Origin: Candidatus Dojkabacteria bacterium
GTDB lineage: Bacteria; Patescibacteriota; Dojkabacteria; JAOAGR01
Direction: 5' to 3'
DNA length: 64,000 bases
Assembly: GCA_025999155.1 (NCBI GenBank)
Contig: AP026679.1
Location: 400,699-464,698 of the forward strand
Below the pieces are notes generated by a model. It saw nothing but the letters and a program-made list of their open reading frames with translations. It was not told where the DNA came from and did no database searches. The position numbers were made by a program, and so were the translations under genes. Shown in pieces: positions 4,665 through 58,844 of this stretch (within the stretch, counting starts at the first letter, position 1; every line of letters starts with the position of its first letter).

Positions 4665-7184
4665 TTATTTTATAAGAATATTATTTCTTATTTTGTCAAT
4701 CTCCTGCTCTAAAAGTCTAATGTAAAGCTCATATCCCACAGCATTAATATGACCACTTTGTTCAGAGCCTAGAATATTACCCGATCCTCTTATTTCCAAA
4801 TCTCTTGATGCAATTTTAAACCCAGCCCCCAACTCTTGATTCTGTATAATAGCCTCAATACGAGAAACAGCATCTGGAGTGATCCATTCATCTTCGATTT
4901 TATTTTCTTCCAGAAGATTCTTTAATTGTAACAACTCTTTTGTAGGATTTTTGTGTAATTTAATAAACTCTTTTGTTTTTGGCAATACTAAATAGCAATG
5001 TGACTGTGTAGAACTTCTGCCTACACGACCCCGCAATTGATAAAGCTGCGCAAGCCCAAATTGATGAGCTTCATCAATAATAATTGTATTAACAGTCGGT
5101 ATATCTAAACCATTTTCGATAATAGTTGTGGCGATCATTACGTCATATTTTTTATTCATAAAAGCTAACATGATTTTTTCAAGTTTGTCTGAAATCATTT
5201 GACCATGACCAATACATATCTTAGTACCGGGGGGTAATTGCTGAGTTATCTCATTTGCGAATGTATCAATATCCTCGACTTTATTATGGACTACAAAAAC
5301 TTGTCCCTCTCTATCTAATTCAAACTTGATTTTTTCAGGAATTTCATCTTTAAAGATAATTTCAGTATGCACAGGTAATCTTCCCTTTGGAGGAGTTGCA
5401 ATTATACTTATATCCTTGATACCAGTAAGAGCCATTTGCAAAGTCCTCGGAATAGGTGTAGCAGACATAGATAACACATCCAGACTTGCTCGGAGTTTGC
5501 GAATCTTTTCCTTTTGTCGTACACCAAATCTCTGCTCCTCATCAATAATCAATAAACCTAAATTTGGAACTTCAACGTCTTTTGACAATAATCTATGAGT
5601 ACCTATCAAAATATCAATTTTACCTTCTTTGGCTAGCATCAGATTTTCTTTATTAGCCTTTGCTCCGTCAAAACGGGAGACTCTAGCAACTTTCACAGGA
5701 TAATTTTTAAAACGCTGTGAAAATACATTATAAAGTTGAGATACGAGTACGGTTGTAGGGGCAAGTACCATTACTTGTTTTTTTGATAATACAGCTTTTA
5801 ACGCGGCTCTCAATGCAATTTCTGTCTTCCCGAAACCTACATCTCCAATAATAAGCCTATCCATTGGCTTTGGTGATTCCATGTCTGACTTCACTTCATT
5901 TAAAGTCTTGATCTGATCTTCTGTAAGTTGAAATTCACATTCTGTTTCAAATTTTTCTTGTAATTCGCTATCTTTTTCAAATTCAATACCTTTTTCAATC
6001 GTTTTTTTAGCATAAATTTCAATTAATTCTTTTGCTATTTCTTCTACATTCTTTTTCAATTTTTTACGGATGCTATCCCATTCAGTAGTACCTAATTTTG
6101 TTAATTTTGGTATATGTCCTTCTACAGATACATATTTTGATATTCTGGACAATTGAGACAAAGGTACTAATAAACTATCTCCGTCAAGGTATTCTATGAC
6201 TACATAATCATTTGCATTTCCCAAAACTACTTTTGTCTCAATACCTTTATAAATACCTATTCCATGAGATTCATGGACCACGTAATCATTTATATTTATT
6301 TCATGATCGAAAAATTTATTAAACTTGGAATATTTGGATTGCTTAAATGGTTTTAAATTTAAAGTGCTTAAAGCTTCATAATCCGTCATTACAATAGTCC
6401 GAGATTTCTTTTCAATAAAACCTTTTTCAAGAGTAAAAGGTAATTCAATGTGTTGAATCTGTATACCTAAATCATTTTTGATAAAACTTTCCGGTAAATT
6501 TTTGTATAAACGACCTACATAATATATAGAAAAATCGGAATAATCTTTTAAAAATCTATTAAAAACCTGCCCGTTTCTATGAAAAAGTGGCAAATAACTT
6601 AACTCCAATTCATCAACAGTATTTGGTTTACTAAATCCATGTAATTCAATTTTGTTTTGTGTGAAAATAAAAGGTTTAATTGAAAATTTGTTATATTCTC
6701 CTATGACTTCAGGGATAAAATTAGTTTTATCTGGGTTAATATTCAAAATGATAGCATTATCGAGTAACTTGATAAGTCGTAAATTTACAGGATCTATTAA
6801 AACAATCTTTTCTACTACATCATCAAAAAATTCTATTCTATAAACTAAATCAGCAATATTTGAGAATAGAGTAACAACATCGCCTTTTACAGAGTACTGC
6901 ATTTGATCATATACTCTCTCAACACGTAAATAGTTGAACTCGGATAATTTGCTTATCAGGCTACTTAGGCTAAGTTTTTGATCTTTTGAGATAACGAATA
7001 TATCAAGCTCAGGATGAATAAACTGATCTGGTAGAAGTATTTGATTCTTTTTAGAAAGATTTGCAAGAAAGTACAAATACAACCTTGCAAAATCTACAGC
7101 CTGAAATTCCAATAATGTAGCAACATTAATATCGATACCGAAAGTTTTATGATCAAAAATCCTTGTTAAAAAATCATTCAACAC
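4665..7184 (-). CDS. mfd: transcription-repair coupling factor Mfd (N-terminally shortened, 839 aa)
   Basis: It carries the RNAP-interacting domain motif 'DYVVHESHGIGIYKGIE', the SF2 translocase Walker A 'GDVGFGKTEIALRAA', and the motifs 'DEEQRFGV' and 'QLRGRVGRS'. It is about 300 aa shorter than E. coli Mfd at the N-terminus, where the UvrB-homology module lies. Confidence 0.85.
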   Translation of the reverse strand: MLNDFLTRIFDHKTFGIDINVATLLEFQAVDFARLYLYFLANLSKKNQILLPDQFIHPELDIFVISKDQKLSLSSLISKLSEFNYLRVERVYDQMQYSVKGDVVTLFSNIADLVYRIEFFDDVVEKIVLIDPVNLRLIKLLDNAIILNINPDKTNFIPEVIGEYNKFSIKPFIFTQNKIELHGFSKPNTVDELELSYLPLFHRNGQVFNRFLKDYSDFSIYYVGRLYKNLPESFIKNDLGIQIQHIELPFTLEKGFIEKKSRTIVMTDYEALSTLNLKPFKQSKYSKFNKFFDHEININDYVVHESHGIGIYKGIETKVVLGNANDYVVIEYLDGDSLLVPLSQLSRISKYVSVEGHIPKLTKLGTTEWDSIRKKLKKNVEEIAKELIEIYAKKTIEKGIEFEKDSELQEKFETECEFQLTEDQIKTLNEVKSDMESPKPMDRLIIGDVGFGKTEIALRAALKAVLSKKQVMVLAPTTVLVSQLYNVFSQRFKNYPVKVARVSRFDGAKANKENLMLAKEGKIDILIGTHRLLSKDVEVPNLGLLIIDEEQRFGVRQKEKIRKLRASLDVLSMSATPIPRTLQMALTGIKDISIIATPPKGRLPVHTEIIFKDEIPEKIKFELDREGQVFVVHNKVEDIDTFANEITQQLPPGTKICIGHGQMISDKLEKIMLAFMNKKYDVMIATTIIENGLDIPTVNTIIIDEAHQFGLAQLYQLRGRVGRSSTQSHCYLVLPKTKEFIKLHKNPTKELLQLKNLLEENKIEDEWITPDAVSRIEAIIQNQELGAGFKIASRDLEIRGSGNILGSEQSGHINAVGYELYIRLLEQEIDKIRNNILIK

Positions 7185-49056: not shown

Positions 49057-50136
49057 ATGAGCCCGCAATTTGCACAAAGTGTTCATGATGATATAGCTTT
49101 TTTATTACAACAGTTGCGCTCATCGAATTGCCCTGAAGAATTACGTTCGGAAGTAGAGCGCAAATTAGGAATAATCATCAAAACAGCGCAATTTGGCGGA
49201 TTTTCTACTGAATTTGAGAAAATTACTAAATATGTAGAATGGATTTCCCGTATACCATGGGGAAAATATACAGTTGATAATCTTTCTCTAGCTAATGTAA
49301 AAAAGACTTTAGATAAGCATCATTATGGAATTGAGAAAGTAAAAGAAAGAATACTTGAGTACATATCCATCATGAAATTAAAGATGGATCAAGAAAAGAC
49401 TAACGTTGTGAGAGCTCCAGTGATGTGTTTTGTCGGGCTTCAGGGAATCGGCAAAACTAGTCTTGCAAAAGCTATTGGTGAGGCGATGGGACGATCAACA
49501 GTCAGAATTGCTATGGGAGGTCTGGGTTCTACTTATGAGTTACGAGGTAAGCCAAAAACAGAACCAGATGCAGAGCCTGGACAAATTATCAAAGCTTTAA
49601 TTAATGCTGGTAGTATGAATCCACTAATTATACTTGATGAGATGGATAAAGTCTCGGGGAATATAGCGCTAAGAAAAGATTTTATGGCAATACTACTTGA
49701 AATATTGGATCCAGAACAGAACTATGCTTTTCGCGACCATTATATTGATTACCCTGTAGATTTATCTAAGGTGTTTTTCATTGCTACCGCGAATAATCTA
49801 GGAAATGTATCCGCTGCTTTATTGGATCGCTTGGAGGTGGTTCGATTCTATTCATATTCAGATGAAGAAAAAGAAGTCATTGGTAAGTTATATCTACTAC
49901 CTAATATTATGCAGGAAGTTGGATTAACATCTGAACAATTAGAGTTCACTGATGATGCTTGGCCTACTATTGTGAGACCTTTAGGATTTGATGCCGGTAT
50001 TCGCCAATTAAAACGCAATCTGTATTCTATTTGCAGAAAAGTCGCAAAAATTATAGTCCTTGGTAAAGCTAAAAAAGTGATTATTAATTCAAACAATGCA
50101 AAATCTTTTATAGACGAAAGTTTTGCCGTGATGTAA
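49057..50136 (+). CDS. Lon-like AAA+ ATPase module lacking the Lon N domain and the S16 protease domain (359 aa)
   Basis: It is collinear with E. coli Lon residues ~240-590: 'WISRIPWGKY...HYGIEKVKERILEYI', Walker A 'GLQGIGKTS', Walker B 'ILDEMDK', 'LLEILDPEQNYAF', 'FIATANN' and 'LDRLEVV'. It ends at the linker where the protease domain should begin. Confidence 0.7.
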   Translation: MSPQFAQSVHDDIAFLLQQLRSSNCPEELRSEVERKLGIIIKTAQFGGFSTEFEKITKYVEWISRIPWGKYTVDNLSLANVKKTLDKHHYGIEKVKERILEYISIMKLKMDQEKTNVVRAPVMCFVGLQGIGKTSLAKAIGEAMGRSTVRIAMGGLGSTYELRGKPKTEPDAEPGQIIKALINAGSMNPLIILDEMDKVSGNIALRKDFMAILLEILDPEQNYAFRDHYIDYPVDLSKVFFIATANNLGNVSAALLDRLEVVRFYSYSDEEKEVIGKLYLLPNIMQEVGLTSEQLEFTDDAWPTIVRPLGFDAGIRQLKRNLYSICRKVAKIIVLGKAKKVIINSNNAKSFIDESFAVM

Positions 50137-50323: not shown

Positions 50324-50929
50324 TTATCTATTCTCTTCCCATTCGGTAGAGTAGAGAATATCTTCAATAGCTAGTCTATAATCATAAATTTCATCTTCCT
50401 TGAACCAAACAGCTAATTCTCTTTCGGCTTCTTCAACGGAGCTTGATGCGTGAATCAAATTACGTGCTGCTCGGTCGGCTTCATCTGCAAGTACATATGA
50501 ATCTATCGTGTAATCACCTCGTATTGTACCAACATCAGCATCAAGCGGACTACCATGTCCTACAAGTTTTCTTACATGATCGATAGCATGGGCCCCTTCG
50601 ATTACCATGACTAATACTGGTCCAGCGAGCATAAATCTAACTAGTCTTCTTTGTACATCTTCTGCAATTTTTATTGGATCCATGTTTAATTCTATGCCTC
50701 TCTTTTTATATGACTCCAATGTACGTGTGCCGCTTTTCAATTTTTCTTCATCTGACCAATAATAATGTGCTTTTGCTTGTTCTTCTGTAGCCTTGAGAAA
50801 TTTCATAGCTACAATTTTTAGGCCTTTTTTTTCGAAGCGTGAAATTATTTCGCCCATTAGCCCTCTTTGTACAGTATCTGGTTTTAGTAGTACTAATGTT
50901 CTTTGGTATGATAATGGTTTATTTTGCAT
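50324..50929 (-). CDS. ndk: nucleoside diphosphate kinase (with ~50-aa C-terminal extension)
   Basis: It has the NDK motifs 'RTLVLLKPDTVQRGLMGEIISRFE' and 'NLIHASSS'. Confidence 0.85.
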   Translation of the reverse strand: MQNKPLSYQRTLVLLKPDTVQRGLMGEIISRFEKKGLKIVAMKFLKATEEQAKAHYYWSDEEKLKSGTRTLESYKKRGIELNMDPIKIAEDVQRRLVRFMLAGPVLVMVIEGAHAIDHVRKLVGHGSPLDADVGTIRGDYTIDSYVLADEADRAARNLIHASSSVEEAERELAVWFKEDEIYDYRLAIEDILYSTEWEENR

Positions 50930-51109
50930 AGCGATTTATTTTAGCATTAATCAATGCCCAATTACTAATGTACTATAAATTTATTTAAAATCCATTAAAT
51001 AATATTGAGATATTTGTGTTGTTATATTATTTAACACTTTGTAAACGTTCAAAACCAATTTATACATTGTTGATTAGATCACAATTCAGTTGTAATATTT
51101 GAGTCTAAA

Positions 51110-52321
51110 ATGAATGTTTACTTATTAGGATTAATTACTTTCTTAAATGCTTCTTGTATCGGACTGGTAATCCCGGTAATGTTTAATTATGCTTCTAGTT
51201 TAGGTCTTGATAATGTCTTAGTAGGTTTACTCTTTGCTACTTTTCCTTTTGCCCAGTTCTTGGCAACCCCAGTAATTGGAAGATTGTCGGATAGATATGG
51301 GCGCAAAACTTTACTTGTAATTTCGTTATTGGGAACTTTTTTTGCTTCGTTGATTCAAGCTTTGGCTACTAATGGATGGATGTTATTTTTGGGAAGATTT
51401 TTGGACGGGATTACAGGAGGCAACACTTCGGTAGTACAAGCAGCGATTGCTGATTCTGCAAAAAATAAAGATAAGACTTTTGAATTTGCTTTATCTGGAG
51501 CGGCACATGGTTTGGGATTTCTTTTTGGTACTCTTTTAGCTTTATTTATTTCTAGAATTGGCAATTTTTACGTTTATATGAGTGCGGCTTTCCTTGCACT
51601 CATTGCAACAGCGATTACATTATTTTTTCTTCCAGAAACTAATTTGTACAGAGAAACAAAACCTTTAAATGTAGTAGAGTTAGTATTTTTACAAATATTT
51701 AGAGCTTTCAAATTACCTGTGATAAGAGATATTTTGATAATAAGCTTGGTAACTGGTATATCTCTTATGCTTTTCCAAGTTACTTTTCAGCCTTATATAA
51801 CAATGAATTTCGGATACGGTCAGGATGAAATTACACAAGTTATGATATTAAATGGATTGATGAGTATAGCTTTTTTAGGGTTAAAGTGGATTGTTGATAG
51901 GTTTGGTTTGATTCGTTTATTAAAGTTGACGTTTTTACTAAGATTGTTAGTCTTTTTAATTCTCGCACTAATTATTGATAGATATGTTTTTTGGGGGGCT
52001 ATGCTGATTCTTGCAGTTACTAATTTAGTTGGTAGACCTGTGATTTCTAATATGATTAGTAATTATGCAAGAAAAGAGGATCAGGGTGCTGCAATGGGTG
52101 TTGCTGAGAGCATGTATTCTATAGGATTAATTATCGGACCGTCGATATTTTCAATCGCTACAATTCCCCTAAATAATGGCTTTACTCTGGGATTCGAAAT
52201 GCTAAATAATGCTCTAATTACTACAGCAAGTAATTACACACTCCCTTTTTATTTTATGGCATTAATTAGTTTGATTACTTATGTTCATGTCATTAAATTT
52301 ACTAAGCAAATTGAGTCATAA
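51110..52321 (+). CDS. MFS transporter (paralogue 1)
   Basis: A 12-TM pattern with the MFS motif A-like 'GRLSDRYGRK'. It is ~65% identical to the MFS at 55575-56834. Confidence 0.7.
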   Translation: MNVYLLGLITFLNASCIGLVIPVMFNYASSLGLDNVLVGLLFATFPFAQFLATPVIGRLSDRYGRKTLLVISLLGTFFASLIQALATNGWMLFLGRFLDGITGGNTSVVQAAIADSAKNKDKTFEFALSGAAHGLGFLFGTLLALFISRIGNFYVYMSAAFLALIATAITLFFLPETNLYRETKPLNVVELVFLQIFRAFKLPVIRDILIISLVTGISLMLFQVTFQPYITMNFGYGQDEITQVMILNGLMSIAFLGLKWIVDRFGLIRLLKLTFLLRLLVFLILALIIDRYVFWGAMLILAVTNLVGRPVISNMISNYARKEDQGAAMGVAESMYSIGLIIGPSIFSIATIPLNNGFTLGFEMLNNALITTASNYTLPFYFMALISLITYVHVIKFTKQIES

Positions 52322-52468
52322 TCTGCCTCCGCTTGTTTCTCTGTCGCCTTGAGAAACTTAATAGCTACGATTTTAGGATCCTTTTGTTTATACCATTAAG
52401 TCTCTTTGAACGGCATCTGGTTTTAATATGACTACAGTTCTTTGATAAGAAGATGCTTTCTTAGACAT
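52322..52468 (-). pseudogene. ndk 5' fragment (duplicated, truncated remnant)
   Basis: The minus strand translates to 'MSKKASSYQRTVVILKPDAVQRDLMV*', compared with ndk 'MQNKPLSYQRTLVLLKPDTVQRGLMGEI'. The DNA is ~80% identical to 50775-50929. Homology continues out of frame ('PKIVAIKFLKATEKQAEA') up to the MFS1 stop codon. Confidence 0.75.
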
Positions 52469-52565
52469 AATCTGCCATTTTTAACATTCAAAATAAATAA
52501 GTATATAATGCGACTCATTTGCATTATTTATATTTTACTATATAATCGGCAGGTGTATCTCGTTA

Positions 52566-52945
52566 TGGTAAGAAAATATTCGGTCAAAAGGCAAAGAATA
52601 CTACAACTTTTTGAAGATCATCATATATTGACTGCTAATGAGATTGTACGATTATTACCAGATATTGATCGCGCTACGATTTATCGTAATTTAAAGTATT
52701 TTGTTGAAACTGGTGAAATTCGCCAATTGCAAATACAAAAAAATGTTATGAGTTACGAGCGTTTTAATCCAGATGATATGCATCAGCATTTCTTATGTCG
52801 TAATTGTAATAAAGTCTTAAAAATATATGGAATAGACAAAAACTATATTCAAAGTAAATTGCCACATGATGTGAATGTAGAGTTTATAGATTTAAATGTA
52901 ATAGGTGTATGTGATGAATGTAGCTCCGTTTTAAAACCTTGTTGA
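52566..52945 (+). CDS. Fur-family metalloregulator (Fur/Zur/PerR-like)
   Basis: 'SVKRQRILQLF...LTANEI...IDRATIYRNLKYF' forms the wHTH. The C-terminus carries metal-site residues 'HQHFLCRNCNKV...CDEC'. The start is moved to the ATG at 52566 because the longer ORF overlaps the ndk remnant. Confidence 0.7.
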
Positions 52946-52991
52946 AATATAGTTATTCAAAATATCACATTACCAAATTATTAAAAGTCTT

Positions 52992-53948
52992 ATGAGAGTA
53001 GCTTTCGTAGGTAAAGGTGGCAGTGGGAAGACCACTATTGCATCATTATTTGCATCATTTTTAGCATACAAAAAGCAGAAAAATATATATGTGGTTGATG
53101 CTGATCTTAATAGGAATATAGCAACACAATTAGGAATTGATACTAGTTCTGTACCAAAATTAAGTGATCCCGAAAATCAAACAAAGATACGTTTGTGGTT
53201 AATGGGCATTCGTCACGATATACCTGAAAATAATTTAAAGTACTTCAAAAAAACGACTCCTCCGCGTATTGGTTCAAATATAATAAAAATATCTGACATT
53301 GATTCCTATCCTGTATTAAGAGAATATTTTATAGGAGATTCTATTAAGCTTGCAGAGATAGGTGAATATGACAAAAGCCTAGTTGCAAAAAATTGCTATC
53401 ACGGGTCATTGAGTATTTTAGAAAATATTTTGAGTCATCTAGATGATAGAGAAGGCTGGTTTGTTGTTGATATGGTAGCAGGGACAGATGCCTTTGTGGG
53501 ATCTTTGTTTGTACAGTTCGATTATATCTTTGTTGTTGCAGAACCTACACGCAATTCACGAGAAGTAGTTCGTCAGTTTGATGAATTAGCAATGCATACG
53601 GGCACTCAACATATATTCAAAATTATTGGTAATAAGGTTGAAAGTTTTGACGATGTCGATTTTATAAAATCTTTTAGTAAAAACTTAGAGTTCCTATATG
53701 CTTTCAAAAAGTCTGACTACATAAAAAGGGTTGAAATAACTGATTCGAAATTTGAAATTCAAAAACTTGAAAAAGATAATCTAAATGTATTGGAATCTCT
53801 TTTTACATATGTAGCAAAGAAGACAATTGACCCTAATGCAAGATTGGAATTATTGCGCAAATGGCACTATAAGGTAGCTATGGATCATTCTGGAGAAGAC
53901 AGAGATATTTTACTTAATCAAATAGCTAACGAGATATTATTTAATTGA
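52992..53948 (+). CDS. CooC/MinD-family P-loop ATPase (putative metallocentre-assembly ATPase)
   Basis: It has the deviant Walker A 'VGKGGSGKTT', 'VVDADLNRNIA' (compare CooC 'DADPDANLA') and 'DMVAGTDAF...VVAEPT...IGNKV'. The CooC 'CxC' Ni motif is replaced by 'NCYHG'. Confidence 0.55.
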   Translation: MRVAFVGKGGSGKTTIASLFASFLAYKKQKNIYVVDADLNRNIATQLGIDTSSVPKLSDPENQTKIRLWLMGIRHDIPENNLKYFKKTTPPRIGSNIIKISDIDSYPVLREYFIGDSIKLAEIGEYDKSLVAKNCYHGSLSILENILSHLDDREGWFVVDMVAGTDAFVGSLFVQFDYIFVVAEPTRNSREVVRQFDELAMHTGTQHIFKIIGNKVESFDDVDFIKSFSKNLEFLYAFKKSDYIKRVEITDSKFEIQKLEKDNLNVLESLFTYVAKKTIDPNARLELLRKWHYKVAMDHSGEDRDILLNQIANEILFN

Positions 53949-53958
53949 ATTTAGTAAT

Positions 53959-55323
53959 ATGAATGTTTTTATTGGAGAAAATTCATTGCAGGATTTTTTA
54001 AACCCTTCTAATATATTTACCCCACTGGTCGAACTACCATCTTCATTAAATACATTTATTGATAGAAACGTCAGAATTTTCATTAAATTAATGTCACATA
54101 CTTCGCTTTTTAATATAAAACACGTAACAGTTTATTCGATGCTAGCACGCACACGAATAGCTGGTAAGCGCTTTCTTGTAGAGAGTTCTTCGGGGAATAC
54201 TGCACTAACATTAAGTATTCTAGCTAAGTACTTTGGATATAAAAAAACAAAATTCTTTTTTTCCCATAGGGTACCTATCGGAAAATTGAATTTGATTAAA
54301 CTTCTTGCTGATGAAATAGAGGTAAATAAAGAGCCTTTATGTCCTGATAAGAAAGATCCAAATTCTTCTATAAACAAAGCAAAATCAATTGCACAAGAGT
54401 CTGATTTTTTAAATCTAGATCAGTATTCTAATCCAGCAAACCCACAGGGGCATTTTGAAGTCACAGGACAACAAATTTTAGAACAATTTGAGTATGCCAA
54501 TTTGCATGTTGATTATCTTTTTGCTGCTGTAGGAACAACCGGAACTATTGTAGGTACTTCGTTGAAACTTAGGGAAAGATTTCCAAGTTTAAAGACAATA
54601 GGAGTAGCGTCTGCCGATGATATGGTTCGGCTTGGTGCTAGATCAAAAAATTTACTTGAAGAGATAGATTTTGAATGGAAATCTCATGTCGACGACTTAG
54701 TGGAGGTAGACGTACAGACAGCTTTTGTCAATTCTATCAATCTTGTGAAATCAGGAATATTAGTTGGACCGTCTACCGGTCATATATTTGGTGGAATCCT
54801 AAAATATGTAGGTGAGAATAATGTCAACAATGCGAACATTGTATTTGTCTCATGTGATACATTTTTACCGTACGTAGAAGAATATATCAAATATTTACCG
54901 TCTGAATATATGGCAAGTGTCATAAATGAAGATCTAGCTTTGAATTACGCTAAAGTACAAGCTAAATTAGCAGGAAGGAATTATATGGACTATAGAATTG
55001 AAGCAGATGTTTTTATAGAGAGGTATCGAAATCTTGACAATAACAGTATTTGTATTGATATAAGAAAAGATAGTGAGTATTCAGCATTTAGGTTACAAAA
55101 TGTCGAAAGGATTCATGAGCAAGATTTAGAGGACGAAACAGTCCAGTCCAGTATAATTAATAATCTGAAGAGTTACAATTCGGTATATGTAATAGATTGT
55201 GGTATGTCAGACATGGCGAAATTACTTAGTCTCATCTTGAGACAAACAGAGGTAAATGCGTATTGGGTAGATGGAGGTATGGACTACATTTCTAAAAACT
55301 GGCCTGAATTAATTGTTCGTTAG
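53959..55323 (+). CDS. CysK-like PLP-dependent beta-replacement enzyme fused to C-terminal rhodanese domain
   Basis: The N-terminal ~320 aa align with O-acetylserine sulfhydrylase: 'TPLVEL', PLP-Lys region 'LFNIKHV', 'LVESSSGNTA', 'QYSNPANPQGHFEVTG' (compare CysK 'QFSNPANPEIHEKTTG') and 'AAVGTTGTIVG'. The C-terminal ~110 aa are rhodanese-like with active-site Cys in 'YVIDCGMSDMA'. Confidence 0.7.
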   Translation: MNVFIGENSLQDFLNPSNIFTPLVELPSSLNTFIDRNVRIFIKLMSHTSLFNIKHVTVYSMLARTRIAGKRFLVESSSGNTALTLSILAKYFGYKKTKFFFSHRVPIGKLNLIKLLADEIEVNKEPLCPDKKDPNSSINKAKSIAQESDFLNLDQYSNPANPQGHFEVTGQQILEQFEYANLHVDYLFAAVGTTGTIVGTSLKLRERFPSLKTIGVASADDMVRLGARSKNLLEEIDFEWKSHVDDLVEVDVQTAFVNSINLVKSGILVGPSTGHIFGGILKYVGENNVNNANIVFVSCDTFLPYVEEYIKYLPSEYMASVINEDLALNYAKVQAKLAGRNYMDYRIEADVFIERYRNLDNNSICIDIRKDSEYSAFRLQNVERIHEQDLEDETVQSSIINNLKSYNSVYVIDCGMSDMAKLLSLILRQTEVNAYWVDGGMDYISKNWPELIVR

Positions 55324-55574
55324 TATTTAAGAGTTGATTTTGTAATTATAAATTTACTCAGAATGAATTTCAGTGTAATTTCATCATTCGTATATTGCGT
55401 GATATTTCAACCATCCTGATACTGTTGTTTAATTGATCATGTCCTTGTGAATCGGAGAATTAATAGTTCATCTTTGGCTCAGTCAAAGTCATTTATTTTT
55501 ATATGTTTTTACTTGCATAATGTTTATTCTAGGTTAACATTGTGTTAGAATCGCGAGCATATTTTTTTAGGGAT

Positions 55575-56834
55575 ATGGGATCAAAGAGACTGATATTTAT
55601 AGTGGGGTTAATTTCTTTTTTAAATGCCCTTACTTTAGGTGCTATTATTCCAGTAATTTATACTTATGCTTCAAGCTTTGATTTAAACGATGCTTCAATA
55701 GGTGTACTTTTTGCTACTTTTTCTCTTGCTCAATTTTTTGCGACTCCAGTTATAGGTAGATTATCAGATAAATATGGACGTAAACCTCTATTAGTCATTT
55801 CACTATCTGGTACATTTGTTGCTTCACTAATTCAAGCTTTTGCTACTAGCGGATGGATGTTATTTTTGGGAAGGTTTTTGGACGGAATTACAGGAGGGAA
55901 CAATTCGGTCGCTCAGGCTGTGATAGTAGATTCTGTTGAAGAAAAAGATAGACCATTTGGGTTTGCTGTATTTGGAGCTGGTTTTGGTTTAGGTTTTCTT
56001 GTCGGCCCAGTGATTTCTCTATTTATCTCTAAAATAGGAAACTCTTACGTATTTTCATTTTCAGCTTTACTTGCTTTAGTGACAACATTGATAGCATTAT
56101 TTGTCCTTCCCGAAACAAATTTGAATAGAGAAACTAAACCACTAAATTTTGTAGAGGTACTTTTTTTAGAAATATTTCGAGCTATGAAAATGCCGATAAT
56201 AAGGGATATTTTGTTAATTAATTTTATTACAGCTCTTTCTACCGCTATTTTTCAAATAGCATTTCAGCCTTACATAACCGTAAATTTCGGTTATGGTCAA
56301 GATCACATTTCATATGTATTGATACTAAATGGAGTTATTAGTATAGCATTTTTGGGGTTTGTTAAACGTCTAAGCGATAAATTTGGATTAAATAATCTAC
56401 TTAGATTAACATTTTTAATTAGATTTTTAACGTTTTTGGTTCTTGCAGTAATTGTTAACAAATTAATTTTTTGGATTGTCATGGTAGTCTTAGGTTTTAT
56501 AAATTTATTTAGTAGACCAGTTATTTCTACTATGATTAGTAATTATTCCAGAAAAGAGGACCAGGGGACCGTTATAGGTGTAGCAGAGAGCATGTTTTCA
56601 CTTGGATTAATCATTGGACCATCATTATTCTCATTAACTTCACTTCCCAAAAATTCGGGATTTAGTCTAGGAAGCCAAACATTAACAAATTTATTAATAA
56701 ATTCTGCTAATAATTATACGCTTGCATTTTATCTAATGGCAGTAATAAGTTTGTGTGCTTTTGTCTATGTATTAAGGTTTACAGCTATCGTTGAGAAAAT
56801 GTTTTCTACCCATAAGAAGGAAATAGACTTTTAA
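55575..56834 (+). CDS. MFS transporter (paralogue 2)
   Basis: It has the same family and motif ('GRLSDKYGRK') as paralogue 1. The start is taken at the ATG at 55575 (MGSKRL...) by alignment with paralogue 1. Confidence 0.7.
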   Translation: MGSKRLIFIVGLISFLNALTLGAIIPVIYTYASSFDLNDASIGVLFATFSLAQFFATPVIGRLSDKYGRKPLLVISLSGTFVASLIQAFATSGWMLFLGRFLDGITGGNNSVAQAVIVDSVEEKDRPFGFAVFGAGFGLGFLVGPVISLFISKIGNSYVFSFSALLALVTTLIALFVLPETNLNRETKPLNFVEVLFLEIFRAMKMPIIRDILLINFITALSTAIFQIAFQPYITVNFGYGQDHISYVLILNGVISIAFLGFVKRLSDKFGLNNLLRLTFLIRFLTFLVLAVIVNKLIFWIVMVVLGFINLFSRPVISTMISNYSRKEDQGTVIGVAESMFSLGLIIGPSLFSLTSLPKNSGFSLGSQTLTNLLINSANNYTLAFYLMAVISLCAFVYVLRFTAIVEKMFSTHKKEIDF

Positions 56835-57036: not shown

Positions 57037-58122
57037 ATGCAAATAGTACAACAAAACGAAATATCTCTAGCTGACATTGTCGCTGTGCTAAGACGAAATG
57101 GGCTTATTATATATCCGTTTGACACTTGTTATGGATTAGTATGTGATCCTACCAATCAAGTTGCCGTTGATAAATTGTTAAAATACAAGGCCCGAAGAGA
57201 AGGTAAGGCTATTTCTGTGACTGTAAAGGATATTGCAATGATAGAAGAGTATGCTGTAATTAATGATACAGCTCGTAATTTTATTCAAAACTTCTTGCCG
57301 GGACCTTTTACTGTCGTTTTACAATCCAGACATAAATTTGCTGATGGAATAGAAGCAGAAAATGGCACAATAGGTATTCGTATCCCCAATTATAGACCTA
57401 TTGTAGATCTGGTTGGTTTGTATGGGTCACCTTTGACATCTACTTCAGCCAATCAAAGCTATCAAAAAACTCCTTACAAAATTTCTGATATTTTGGATTA
57501 TGCAAATAGACGCGATTTAGATTATATAGATCTAATAGTAGATGCTGGTGATCTTCCTAAAAACCCTCCTTCCACGGTTATTGATTTTTCTAACGATAAT
57601 ATTCATGTATTGCGAAAAGGATCAATAATCCCAGAGGGAGCAGACTTTAGTCAACGGGTCTCAAATTCGGTCGCTGACACTATAGCGATCGGCAAAGAAT
57701 TGATGCAAAAATATAGAACAAATCTCCAATATAGACCTGTGATATTTGCCTTACAAGGAGATATGGGAGCAGGGAAAACTCATTTTACTAAAGGATTAGG
57801 ACTAAGCTTAGGAGTCAAAGAAGAAATCAATTCACCAACATTTGTTATTGTAAACGAATATAATTTAGATACAGGAAATAAGTTATATCATATTGATACT
57901 TGGCGGTTAGACATATCTGCTGACTTTCACGAACTAGATGAAATCCAATTTGTTAATATGCTAAGAAAGGAAGGAGATTCATATAATGCCATCTCAATTG
58001 AATGGTCTGATAAAATTGTTGATTATTTGAATAAAATAGATAGCAATATCAAGCTTATATGGGTTGAGATTGTCATCGATTATCAAAGTCCTAATAAACG
58101 AATTATTAAATGGAGTGAGTAA
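57037..58122 (+). CDS. TsaC (YrdC-domain) :: TsaE fusion protein for t6A37 tRNA modification
   Basis: The N-terminal ~200 aa form the YrdC/TsaC domain ('IYPFDTCYGLVCDP', 'LTSTSANQS'). The C-terminal ~150 aa form TsaE ('ALQGDMGAGKTHFTKGLGLSLGV...SPTFVIVNEY...YHIDTWRL'). Confidence 0.7.
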   Translation: MQIVQQNEISLADIVAVLRRNGLIIYPFDTCYGLVCDPTNQVAVDKLLKYKARREGKAISVTVKDIAMIEEYAVINDTARNFIQNFLPGPFTVVLQSRHKFADGIEAENGTIGIRIPNYRPIVDLVGLYGSPLTSTSANQSYQKTPYKISDILDYANRRDLDYIDLIVDAGDLPKNPPSTVIDFSNDNIHVLRKGSIIPEGADFSQRVSNSVADTIAIGKELMQKYRTNLQYRPVIFALQGDMGAGKTHFTKGLGLSLGVKEEINSPTFVIVNEYNLDTGNKLYHIDTWRLDISADFHELDEIQFVNMLRKEGDSYNAISIEWSDKIVDYLNKIDSNIKLIWVEIVIDYQSPNKRIIKWSE

Positions 58123-58139: not shown

Positions 58140-58844
58140 ATGTCGATTGGTAATTTTGAATTTGAGGTTGTAGAGAACCAGTTAATAGTTGAGAAAATCC
58201 GTCTATTAAGAGTAAAGCCAAATATTCCAGTTGATTTTCAAGCAGGTCAGTATTTTTCTTTTAAAATAGCTGATAAAGTAAATAGATCTTATTCTGTTGC
58301 TTCTCCTCCTAATCGCCAAACTATAGAATTTCTTGTAGAGATAATAGAAGGTGGTTTAGGATCGACTTTCATTGATAATCTTAGAGTGGGGGATAAATTT
58401 GATGCCATTGGTCCTTTAGGTTTTTTTACTTTAGAAAAAACGGGTGCATTGGAAGATGATAATCCTATTATTTTTGTAGCTACAGGTAGTGGCATATCAC
58501 CAATTAGATCTATGTTATACGATTTATTGGAGAATAAAAAAACTTCTCGCGAGATATACTTATATTTTGGCTTAAGATATGATGAAAGAGCTTATTTTTT
58601 TGAAGAATTTGGTAATCTAGTATCAATCTATCCTAATTTGAAGTTTTATCCTGTTATTTCACGACCCAGTGCTAAATGGAATGGATTTGTTGGTTATTGT
58701 CAAGATGTAATTCGGCAACGCCCATTGATACATAATGCACGGATATATGTCTGTGGTAGCAATAAAAACGTCGAAAGTATTATAAATAATTTAGTTTCTT
58801 TTGGTTATGATAAAAATAAAATTTTTCATGAAAAGTTTGGTTGA
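58140..58844 (+). CDS. ferredoxin-NADP reductase-family FAD/NAD(P)-binding oxidoreductase
   Basis: It has the FAD motif 'RSYSVAS', 'GGLGSTFI' and the NAD motif 'FVATGSGISPIRSM'. Confidence 0.65.
   Translation: MSIGNFEFEVVENQLIVEKIRLLRVKPNIPVDFQAGQYFSFKIADKVNRSYSVASPPNRQTIEFLVEIIEGGLGSTFIDNLRVGDKFDAIGPLGFFTLEKTGALEDDNPIIFVATGSGISPIRSMLYDLLENKKTSREIYLYFGLRYDERAYFFEEFGNLVSIYPNLKFYPVISRPSAKWNGFVGYCQDVIRQRPLIHNARIYVCGSNKNVESIINNLVSFGYDKNKIFHEKFG

Follow-up and report, generated by a model that had tools for sequence, protein, structure and literature searches.

Among the known members of Zur regulons are metallophore clusters, COG0523 proteins and zur operons under their own control (PMC6103462), and a group of pyridoxal 5'-phosphate (PLP) enzymes that comprises AMA synthase, Fda4, SbnA, CmnB and Tln5 carries out C-N β-substitution on O-phosphoserine (PMC12751119; bioRxiv 10.1101/2025.10.30.685158). 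AMA synthase condenses O-phosphoserine with L-Asp to toxin A, which leads on to aspergillomarasmine A (AMA) (PMC12751119), and AMA is a Zn2+ metallophore (PMC8829947, PMC8319579). Here we describe a 64-kb stretch of DNA (hereafter the window) in which genes for a Fur-family repressor, a CooC-like ATPase and a PLP enzyme joined to a rhodanese domain (PALP::rhodanese, or PALP::RHD) follow one another on the same strand. Metallophore and chaperone loci under the control of Zur are known, unlike the gene composition found here, and our literature search found no published description of the three-gene module. An earlier account of the locus, drawn from its letters alone (the sequence-only reading), had known of no described system with this architecture; to our knowledge that holds for the module as a whole, but it fails for the PALP + rhodanese arrangement, which is characterised in fungal AMA synthase and in Fda4. 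We find that the three genes form a unit conserved across phyla, and consider it likely that this conserved module responds to zinc.

The core unit lies at 52481-55323 and consists of the following features:

52481-52509, + strand: promoter-like site TTAACA-17 nt-TATAAT, a consensus match only (11/12)
52509-52523, no strand: candidate operator TGCGACTCATTTGCA, a 7-1-7 palindrome of 15 bp, by match to the family pattern
52565-52945, + strand: Fur-family repressor, 126 aa, probable ATG at 52565 (Pfam FUR 6.2e-17, 62 bits against a cutoff of 23)
52992-53948, + strand: CooC-like SIMIBI P-loop ATPase, 318 aa (Pfam CbiA/AAA_31 weak, N-terminal P-loop only)
53959-55323, + strand: PALP + rhodanese protein, AMA-synthase-like, 454 aa (Pfam PALP 2e-36)

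The window, which is AT-rich (GC ~32%), belongs to a genome of Candidatus Dojkabacteria, in the candidate phyla radiation (CPR): its PLP protein matches one from 'Candidatus Dojkabacteria bacterium KatS3mg084' with 100% identity. The ATPase and PLP genes are 10 bp apart here and overlap in several relatives. The open reading frames (ORFs) on which the sequence-only reading was built all recur in the ORF list at the same coordinates, and its domain calls (Fur, CooC-like, CysK-like PLP, rhodanese and major facilitator superfamily (MFS)) are backed by Pfam and NCBIfam.

One genome per species was scanned with a profile of the ATPase, which matched at least 587 species, and neighbourhoods were counted at the best 80 ATPase loci, 22 non-actinomycete and 58 actinomycete (neighbouring ORFs in the Streptomyces loci were chosen with filtering on third-codon-position GC, GC3). 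A PALP::rhodanese gene follows the adjacent ATPase gene in 19 of the 22 non-actinomycete loci, and a Fur-family gene adjoins the ATPase in 15 of them. The 22 carriers belong to Dojkabacteria, Berkelbacteria, Saccharibacteria, Parcubacteria, Spechtbacteria, Paceibacterota, Iainarchaeum, Woesearchaeota, metagenome-assembled genomes (MAGs) of Gammaproteobacteria and one cyanobacterium; at the 58 actinomycete loci the ATPase is present without PALP::rhodanese. Among loci inspected individually (L numbers; homologous proteins carry P numbers), the ATPase gene lies immediately 5' of PLP::rhodanese in L001 (a metagenome contig), Absconditicoccus praedator (L002), L005/6, the Dojkabacteria-type L010, L011/12 and L013/14, all with a Fur-family neighbour except L002, and the two genes are likewise adjacent in L015 and L017. 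Two ATPase homologues picked solely because they sit on long contigs (P0129 and P0231) both have PALP::rhodanese directly downstream and an adjacent Fur-family gene. Linkage of the fur, ATPase and PALP::rhodanese genes is far above chance, and CPR bacteria, DPANN archaea, one cyanobacterium and some Gammaproteobacteria all keep the trio together, which disposes of the possibility, raised in the sequence-only reading, that these are separately distributed genes with no conserved linkage in relatives. Mobility genes recur beside the module, namely a relaxase, FtsK and SSB (L015 619-5056), transposases (L002 4676-4954 and 7441-8076; L010 1704-2661) and serine recombinases (L017 12360-12966; L024 9453-10886), and this repeated flanking is consistent with horizontal spread across phyla.

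PALP::RHD genes also stand alone, without the ATPase, in L003 and L007. The L007 copy (5428-6729, the context of P0013) represents the most abundant stand-alone PALP::rhodanese cluster, with 288 member sequences, and has a radical-SAM/SPASM enzyme and a methyltransferase encoded a few genes downstream. A small DUF805 membrane protein is encoded near PALP::rhodanese in three independent contexts (L003 5082-5597, L005 9709-10224 and L022 9658-10113), one of which is the stand-alone alphaproteobacterial PALP::rhodanese copy beside AhpC and a nitroreductase.

Upstream of fur, the candidate operator TGCGACTCATTTGCA directly adjoins the -10 box of the promoter-like site that scores best there, and it is the sole exact match to the family pattern TGCRACTNANTTGCA in the window, where matches with two mismatches number 6 against 3.6 expected, a chance level. 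The sequence-only reading had proposed a search for a Fur/Zur box upstream of position 52566 and upstream of both flanking MFS genes; the palindrome at 52509-52523 answers to the former, and no operator was found upstream of MFS1 or MFS2, the window holding only the chance-level two-mismatch matches besides. The family consensus is TGCAAC-N3-GTTGCA (degenerate form TGCRAC-N3-RTTGCA), and the box lies 5' of the module in L098, L010, L011, L013, L015, L017, L023, L024, L028, L030, L032 and L034. Its 7-1-7 form stands upstream of fur or cobW-fur in L098, L010, L011, L013 and L015 (two copies in L015) and precedes a ZigA-like cobW-fur-ATPase-PALP operon in L010 and L013; in L017 one copy precedes the ATPase operon and two more lie between the divergently oriented fur and znuA genes. 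At least 13 non-redundant exact matches were counted in 1.31 Mb of fetched loci against ~0.3 expected, nearly all of them directly 5' of fur, ATPase, cobW or znuA, and matches were found in Dojkabacteria, Saccharibacteria, Parcubacteria and Gammaproteobacteria MAGs. The position of the box suggests that the regulator is autoregulated through the candidate operator at its own promoter, as is known for zur genes located in operons (PMC6103462). Since operator, regulator and cargo are conserved together in many loci, the three appear to move together. At L005 a different palindrome, TGTTAA-N3-TTAACA, is found in two copies between fur and the ATPase gene (5121-5195) in place of TGCAAC-N3-GTTGCA, which suggests that regulator and operator co-diverged.

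The regulator has the cysteine pairs C78-x-x-C81 and C116-x-x-C119 of a structural Cys4 site and H73-Q-H75 before the first CxxC, and these residues align with the matching ones of PerR (2FE3) and Zur (3MWM). PerR models are its best NCBIfam matches, weak and far below their cutoffs. In a hand alignment to Streptomyces coelicolor Zur, of the residues of the Zur regulatory site, H85 and H87 are kept in the regulator and C79, H84 and H86 are not. By the context of its relatives the regulator would be Zur-like; its sequence does not assign it to Zur, Fur or PerR.

That context is rich in zinc genes. COG0523 genes adjoin the module in L001, L010, L013 and L038, with the zinc chaperone ZigA as their best model, and the L038 copy (Woesearchaeota) passes the curated ZigA cutoff (612 bits against 600). 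Transporters of the znuABC type follow the module in L017 and L038, and the best matches of their binding proteins are the zinc types AztC and AdcA. Four actinomycete loci have the stand-alone ATPase gene beside znuA, znuB, cobW or fur, and in Saccharothrix and Streptomyces a fusion of a SulP transporter with β-carbonic anhydrase is encoded downstream of it (L056 8152-10698; L085 9664-12288). No genes for carbon monoxide dehydrogenase (CODH), acetyl-CoA synthase (ACS), hydrogenase, urease, iron uptake or Fe-S assembly were found in the neighbourhoods examined. The surroundings in relatives point to zinc as the sensed metal, and together with the operator they support the Fur/Zur-type control in a metal context that the sequence-only reading had proposed. 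A YibE/F-family membrane protein, which may be an uncharacterised metal transporter of the same regulon, adjoins the Fur/ATPase module in five loci (L017 11584-12141; L023 7837-9201; L027 5055-6434; L034 3052-4155; L077 12998-14089), and the L023 copy ends in a His-rich C-terminal tail, HSHGHSHGH. The two SulP-β-carbonic anhydrase loci also encode a HAD hydrolase and a second MinD-like ATPase nearby; β-carbonic anhydrase, a Cys2His zinc enzyme, may be a client of the ATPase in actinomycetes.

The ATPase carries the deviant Walker A motif of dimerising SIMIBI ATPases (VGKGGSGKTT, with the core GKGGSGKT). Its closest solved relative by profile against the PDB is CooC1 (3KJE, E 6e-23), which is also the top Foldseek match of its AlphaFold2 (AF2) model (predicted local distance difference test score, pLDDT, 91). 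C135-Y-H137 (codons 53394-53402, within 'NCYHG') aligns with the nickel-binding C-Y-C of CooC1, so that the description of a CooC/MinD-type ATPase whose CxC is replaced by NCYHG proved accurate. The histidine of C-Y-H is invariant in 26/26 diverse sequences, in which 58 columns are invariant, among them C135, Y136, H137 and H149, and which have a family-specific C-terminal helical extension of ~60 aa with conserved motifs of its own. Clustered at 50% identity, the family forms ~264 groups at E<=1e-30. A homodimer would offer a Cys2His2 site where CooC binds metal, and the protein would most likely bind and move metal. An identity as a BioD/CobQ-like ligase or kinase was considered and rejected on the deviant Walker A with its MinD/CooC signature Lys and on the metal motif at the CooC position. 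The literature found on CooC-like proteins concerns CODH, and no publication tying this branch to zinc was found in it. Rare fusions of the ATPase to a SAM methyltransferase or HAD phosphatase domain (P0281, 575 aa; P0312, 562 aa) keep the C-x-H, as CHH in P0281 and CFH in P0312.

The fold-type-II PLP motifs of the third protein are intact and invariant or nearly so: K54 (54118-54120), S77-S78-G79-N80, G192-T-T-G195 and S272. All 27 distinct homologues share K54, SSGN, C128, Q155, H165 and R228, the last of which AMA synthase has as well, and the rhodanese cysteine C414 (55198-55200) is invariant in 26/26 complete homologues; the absence of the PLP lysine and the rhodanese Cys, which would have undone the sequence-only assignment, is thus not what we see. 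A family profile run against the PDB matches AMA synthase (8H4Q/8H4H) over its full length with E 1e-124, positions 4-454 aligning to 8H4Q residues 8-479, and the next matches (CBS, CysK, CysM and SbnA) reach ~1e-40 and cover the PLP domain only. The AF2 model (pLDDT 91.4) likewise has AMA synthase as its top Foldseek matches (E 9e-36); according to the Foldseek entry titles 8H4H is the apo enzyme and 8H4Q the form with O-phosphoserine. Curated cysteine synthase models are failed by a wide margin (cysKM 110.7 against 344 bits, CysM 94.5 against 413 and cysK 92.3 against 351), as is the SbnA model TIGR03945 (116.7 bits against a 350 cutoff), and no SbnB-like gene occurs in any annotated locus. 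The SbnA-like β-replacement character claimed for the enzyme is supported, with AMA synthase as the closest solved homologue. The comparison with CntL is rejected, since CntL belongs to a different enzyme class: it is nicotianamine-synthase-like and not a PLP β-replacement enzyme. The rhodanese loop has the GlpE-type form C-x-x-G-x-x-S/T in most members and the degenerate form C-G-M-S-D-M-A in the window protein and its Dojkabacteria clade, which accounts for a Pfam Rhodanese score of 19 bits against the gathering score of 22.2.

Five loci (L028, L031, L033, L038 and L077) hold a sister variant in which the ATPase gene is followed by an Orn/DAP-type PLP decarboxylase gene and then by PALP::rhodanese. 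The variant PALP::rhodanese is more CysM-like, matching best as CysM/CysK, and still has the C128 motif. Its decarboxylase echoes SbnH and EDDS (ethylenediaminedisuccinate) chemistry, which argues for small-molecule synthesis. Aminotran_5 genes of the variant loci were considered as phosphoserine aminotransferases and rejected, as they encode cysteine desulfurases of the SufS and IscS/DndA types, two classes that must have been recruited independently. These desulfurases lend some support to the sequence-only suggestion that the rhodanese domain supplies persulfide. No desulfurase was found with the window-type module, either in the window-type loci or in the window, and phmmer detected no desulfurase, decarboxylase or YibE/F homologue within the 64 kb. 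At the cyanobacterial locus L033 (12127-14881) the module is followed, after a BT1-type MFS gene, by genes for a MerC-family protein and an AcrB-type RND pump.

The flanks of the core unit comprise the following:

50324-50929, - strand: ndk, nucleoside diphosphate kinase (Pfam NDK 3e-41), the left edge of the ancestral locus, outside the module
51110-52321, + strand: MFS1, DHA1/TetA-like MFS transporter (Pfam MFS_1 4e-49)
52318-52469, - strand: decayed 5' ndk fragment, a recombination scar, by nucleotide match to ndk
55472-55497, + strand: terminator-like hairpin (55472-55488) with a T-run to 55497, a consensus match only
55542-56834, + strand: MFS2, DHA1/TetA-like MFS transporter (Pfam MFS_1 4e-56)
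57037-58122, + strand: TsaC-TsaE fusion (Pfam)
58140-58844, + strand: FNR-like reductase (ORF list)

MFS1 and MFS2 share 62% aa identity over 402 aa. Both are generic DHA1-type proteins that fall far below every NCBIfam Tet cutoff, the Tet(A)-class curated model giving 146 bits for MFS1 and 179 bits for MFS2 against 475. The closest relative of the locus, L098 (ATPase protein 95% identical), has the order ndk(-)|fur-ATPase-PALP-MFS-tsaCE, in which MFS1 and the ndk fragment are missing and ndk stands directly beside fur with a 90-bp gap; the terminator-like hairpin between the PLP gene and MFS2 is kept. Paralogous MFS genes do flank the unit, as had been noted at ~65% identity, but such bracketing is not found in other lineages: MFS2 is common only to L098, MFS1 is a genome-specific paralogue between ndk and fur, by insertion or retention, and neither has an operator, so that the MFS genes cannot be counted as part of the cassette. 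Nucleotide identity to L098 is 95-98.5% for the ATPase, PALP and MFS2 genes (MFS2 98.5%), 84-85% for fur and ndk and 71.5% between MFS1 and the L098 MFS gene, and these unequal values indicate that the locus is a recombinational mosaic. The ndk fragment corresponds to the first part of ndk (50762-50930), to which it is 72-77% identical, and has been altered by a frameshift and the loss of 15 nt; its identity is 72.6% to the window ndk and 66.7% to the L098 ndk. Lying 96 bp from the fur start, in line with the gap in L098, it appears to mark the ancestral ndk|fur junction. A recent mosaic had been read from this fragment, of which the mosaic stands and the recency does not, the fragment being decayed, frameshifted and 67-73% identical.

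Several further features of the window were recorded. TsaC/Sua5 (threonylcarbamoyl-AMP synthase) and TsaE, both of the t6A tRNA-modification pathway, are joined in the one ORF at 57037-58122 (+) (Pfam 8e-43 and 1e-27), and the fusion is kept in L098. The ndk product (50324-50929, -) is 201 aa long and matches Pfam NDK in two separate stretches, which indicates that ~35-40 residues are inserted centrally in an enzyme that would otherwise measure ~140 aa. A 359-aa protein at 49057-50136 (+), also kept in L098, consists of a Lon AAA+ module and Lon lid with no Lon protease domain in the ORF. The segment 16001-18000 has a GC content of 0.417 against a background of ~0.32 and may hold rRNA/tRNA genes or foreign DNA.

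Taking these results together, we propose that the metal-loaded Fur-family repressor would bind TGCGACTCATTTGCA beside the -10 box of its own promoter, and that on zinc scarcity it would be released and the ATPase and PLP genes expressed. The ATPase, as a dimerising CooC-type protein with a Cys2His2 site, would most likely be a factor that handles or inserts zinc at the expense of ATP. The PLP enzyme would form PLP-aminoacrylate from O-phosphoserine or O-acetylserine and add a nucleophile to it, giving a small metal ligand of the 2-amino-2-carboxyethyl type, either an aminopolycarboxylate resembling toxin A or AMA or, should sulfur come from the rhodanese Cys, a thio-analogue; in view of the decarboxylase and desulfurases of the sister variant the nucleophile may be an amine or sulfur. 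MFS2 may export the product as an accessory of the module in this lineage, and MFS1 and the ndk fragment would reflect a later, genome-specific rearrangement. To this whole, a mobile, autoregulated zinc-limitation module that pairs a putative zinc-handling ATPase with a ligand-making β-substitution enzyme, we give an even chance of being right, and for an aminopolycarboxylate chelator as the product of the PLP enzyme a chance somewhat short of even. A wider and rather unlikely extension is that the C-x-H ATPases are an unrecognised class of zinc metallochaperones or insertases parallel to COG0523, obligately paired with an AMA-synthase-like enzyme making a zinc ligand (aminopolycarboxylate or thio-aminocarboxylate) in CPR, DPANN and other small-genome organisms, and that the unit, complete with repressor and operator, is a minimal zinc-acquisition plug-in passed on by horizontal transfer.

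Several observations weigh against this proposal. Structures of PerR, Fur and Zur all lie at the same distance from the regulator, which scores 19.9 bits with the NCBIfam Zur model, whose cutoff is 167, and phmmer found no CobW (COG0523) or ZnuA homologue in the window. Identity of the PLP enzyme to AMA synthase is 26-27%, and C128 (54340-54342), set in an ICPDPxDP motif, is invariant in the prokaryotic family where AMA synthase has Gln. The invariance of the rhodanese cysteine C414 has to be counted here too, as do the desulfurase genes in 3/5 decarboxylase-type loci (SufS-type in L031 and L077, IscS/DndA-type in L033), which argue that the rhodanese Cys receives persulfide, at least in the variant, and favour sulfur over nitrogen chemistry. 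No MFS2 homologue lies near the module in any locus other than L098; the BT1-type MFS gene that overlaps the PLP::RHD gene in L033 is unrelated to MFS2. The heterogeneous neighbours of the window-type module include no consistently retained dedicated exporter and no such importer of a chelate, which would be odd for a secreted metallophore. We also know of no metallophore pathway that uses a CooC-type ATPase.

The main rival to a ligand-making enzyme, unlikely in our estimate, is a sulfur relay in which a C414 persulfide, supplied by a cysteine desulfurase or thiosulfate, would attack the PLP-aminoacrylate, or in which C414 would accept sulfur from cysteine β-elimination. C128 would then be the resolving thiol, the product would be cysteine, cysteine persulfide, a thioether or a thiol compound, and the ATPase would act as a sulfur or metal-sulfur partner, for example a Cys/His-ligated cluster carrier like Mrp/Nbp35. 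The invariance of C414 and C128 in all complete homologues examined suits such a relay, as do the canonical GlpE-type loop of most members, the independent recruitment of desulfurases in the variant and the best match of its PLP domain to CysM/CysK. Mycobacterial CysM-CysO-MoeZ provides a precedent, CysM being an O-phosphoserine-specific CysK-fold enzyme dependent on a rhodanese-containing sulfur-delivery partner; there, however, the rhodanese resides on MoeZ and is not fused to the synthase, the system is not zinc-linked, and it requires the ubiquitin-like carrier CysO, of which none was seen with the module. In the window-type loci and the window desulfurases are missing, the Dojkabacteria rhodanese loop (CGMSDMA) is degenerate with a Pfam score below the gathering threshold, the ATPase has a single conserved Cys, and the neighbours are related to zinc rather than to Fe-S or sulfur assimilation. 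Making cysteine with sulfur taken from cysteine would moreover be circular, and both characterised PALP + rhodanese enzymes perform C-N chemistry, AMA synthase while also keeping the rhodanese Cys (PMC12751119). The ATPase and the PLP enzyme might instead form a chaperone-client pair, in which the ATPase inserts metal, at a site built from C128, ICPDPxDP, C414 and the C-terminal Cys of many members, into a zinc-limitation isozyme of a housekeeping reaction that is no metallophore synthase. We regard this as improbable. It would account for the tight or overlapping gene spacing, which suggests a complex, and it has parallels in CooC, UreG and HypB, whose genes adjoin those of their clients, and in the actinomycete ATPase gene that adjoins another zinc enzyme, the β-carbonic anhydrase fused to SulP. 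Alternative isozymes are also common in Zur regulons (PMC6103462). The stand-alone PALP::RHD genes of L003 and L007 do without the ATPase, which is at odds with such a pairing. The metal site itself would be without precedent, for we know of none in CysK-fold enzymes or AMA synthase, and CPR genomes rarely retain amino-acid biosynthesis.

The regulator could also sense iron, manganese, nickel or peroxide and the module serve that metal or stress, which we judge slightly less probable still. PerR models are the best, if weak, matches to the regulator, Mn and Fe types exist within the ZnuA family of binding proteins, AhpC-type peroxiredoxins are encoded near some PALP::RHD genes (L003 and L017) and CooC itself handles nickel; but the linked COG0523 proteins match ZigA, one of them above the curated cutoff, AztC and AdcA are the best models for the linked binding proteins, and iron-uptake, Fe-S, CODH, hydrogenase and urease genes are absent from all loci examined. 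Zinc might further be mobilised by catabolism of a ligand, as proposed for ZigA/HutH, with the PLP enzyme degrading cysteine or a zinc-buffering ligand, the rhodanese trapping sulfide and the ATPase collecting the zinc. Such a scheme would need no exporter, ZigA-type COG0523 genes do co-occur with the module, and CysK-fold enzymes can be cysteine desulfhydrases; it is an argument by analogy to which the data add nothing in favour of catabolism, and since the decarboxylase- and desulfurase-type variants look biosynthetic we think it very improbable. Chance adjacency of unrelated housekeeping genes, for which the window proteins by themselves offer nothing beyond weak single-family scores, is already refuted by a gene order and a shared operator conserved across phyla and domains.

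If the wider extension set out above holds, the unit would be the first metallophore-type pathway in these ultra-small organisms and would place the origin of the fungal AMA synthases in prokaryotes. The proposed zinc-limitation module offers a hypothesis for how ultra-reduced CPR and DPANN organisms meet zinc scarcity, a matter on which almost nothing is known, and it gives an orphan CooC-like branch, present in at least 587 species and common in Streptomyces, a zinc context in place of a nickel/CODH one, in which that branch would be a second nucleotide-driven zinc-chaperone family beside COG0523. Prokaryotic homologues of AMA synthase would be possible biocatalysts or sources of new chelators, AMA being a lead inhibitor of metallo-β-lactamases, and the invariant C414 and C128, together with the desulfurases of the variant, may explain the rhodanese domain of AMA-synthase-type enzymes. 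The module would also exemplify a mobile, self-regulated metal-homeostasis cassette in which regulator, operator and cargo cross phyla together.

Compared with described systems, the PLP::rhodanese protein is closest to AMA synthase of Aspergillus oryzae, with which it shares a CysK-fold PLP domain and a C-terminal rhodanese-like domain with its Cys retained, and whose product is a Zn2+-chelating aminopolycarboxylate (PMC12751119, PMC8829947). AMA synthase differs in being fungal, in lacking C128 and the ICPDPxDP motif and in having SSGST where the window family has SSGNT, and no accompanying CooC-like ATPase or Fur-type regulator is known for it. Fda4, from the fusadapamide cluster of Fusarium poae, is likened to the window protein by its description as a PLP 'cysteine synthase' with a rhodanese-like domain that joins O-phosphoserine to L-Ala, in a cluster that also has an MFS transporter gene (PMC12751119); unlike the window protein it works with an FAD oxidoreductase to release L-2,3-diaminopropionate (L-Dap) for a nonribosomal peptide synthetase (NRPS), with neither metal regulation nor an ATPase. 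The sister variant shares with SbnA/SbnH of staphyloferrin B synthesis the combination of a CysK-fold O-phosphoserine β-substitution enzyme and an Orn/DAP-type PLP decarboxylase, a pairing that the [S,S]-EDDS (aes) genes of Amycolatopsis japonicum presumably encode as well. EDDS production by that organism is under Zur control (PMC6103462). Both systems differ from the variant in having no rhodanese domain and no CooC-like ATPase and in needing SbnB-type partners, which are absent at these loci. The ATPase is nearest in sequence and fold to CooC1/AcsF, the nickel-insertion ATPases of CODH and ACS, sharing Walker A GKGGxGKT and the position of the metal motif, whereas it has an invariant C-Y-H for CxC and the ~60-aa C-terminal extension, and in relatives its gene adjoins zinc genes with no CODH/ACS neighbours. 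With the COG0523 proteins ZigA, ZagA/YciC and ZNG1, which are induced by zinc limitation under Zur and whose genes adjoin the module in several genomes, it shares a putative nucleotide-driven delivery of metal; those proteins, however, are G3E GTPases with a CxCC motif, and the window protein is a MinD/CooC-type ATPase.

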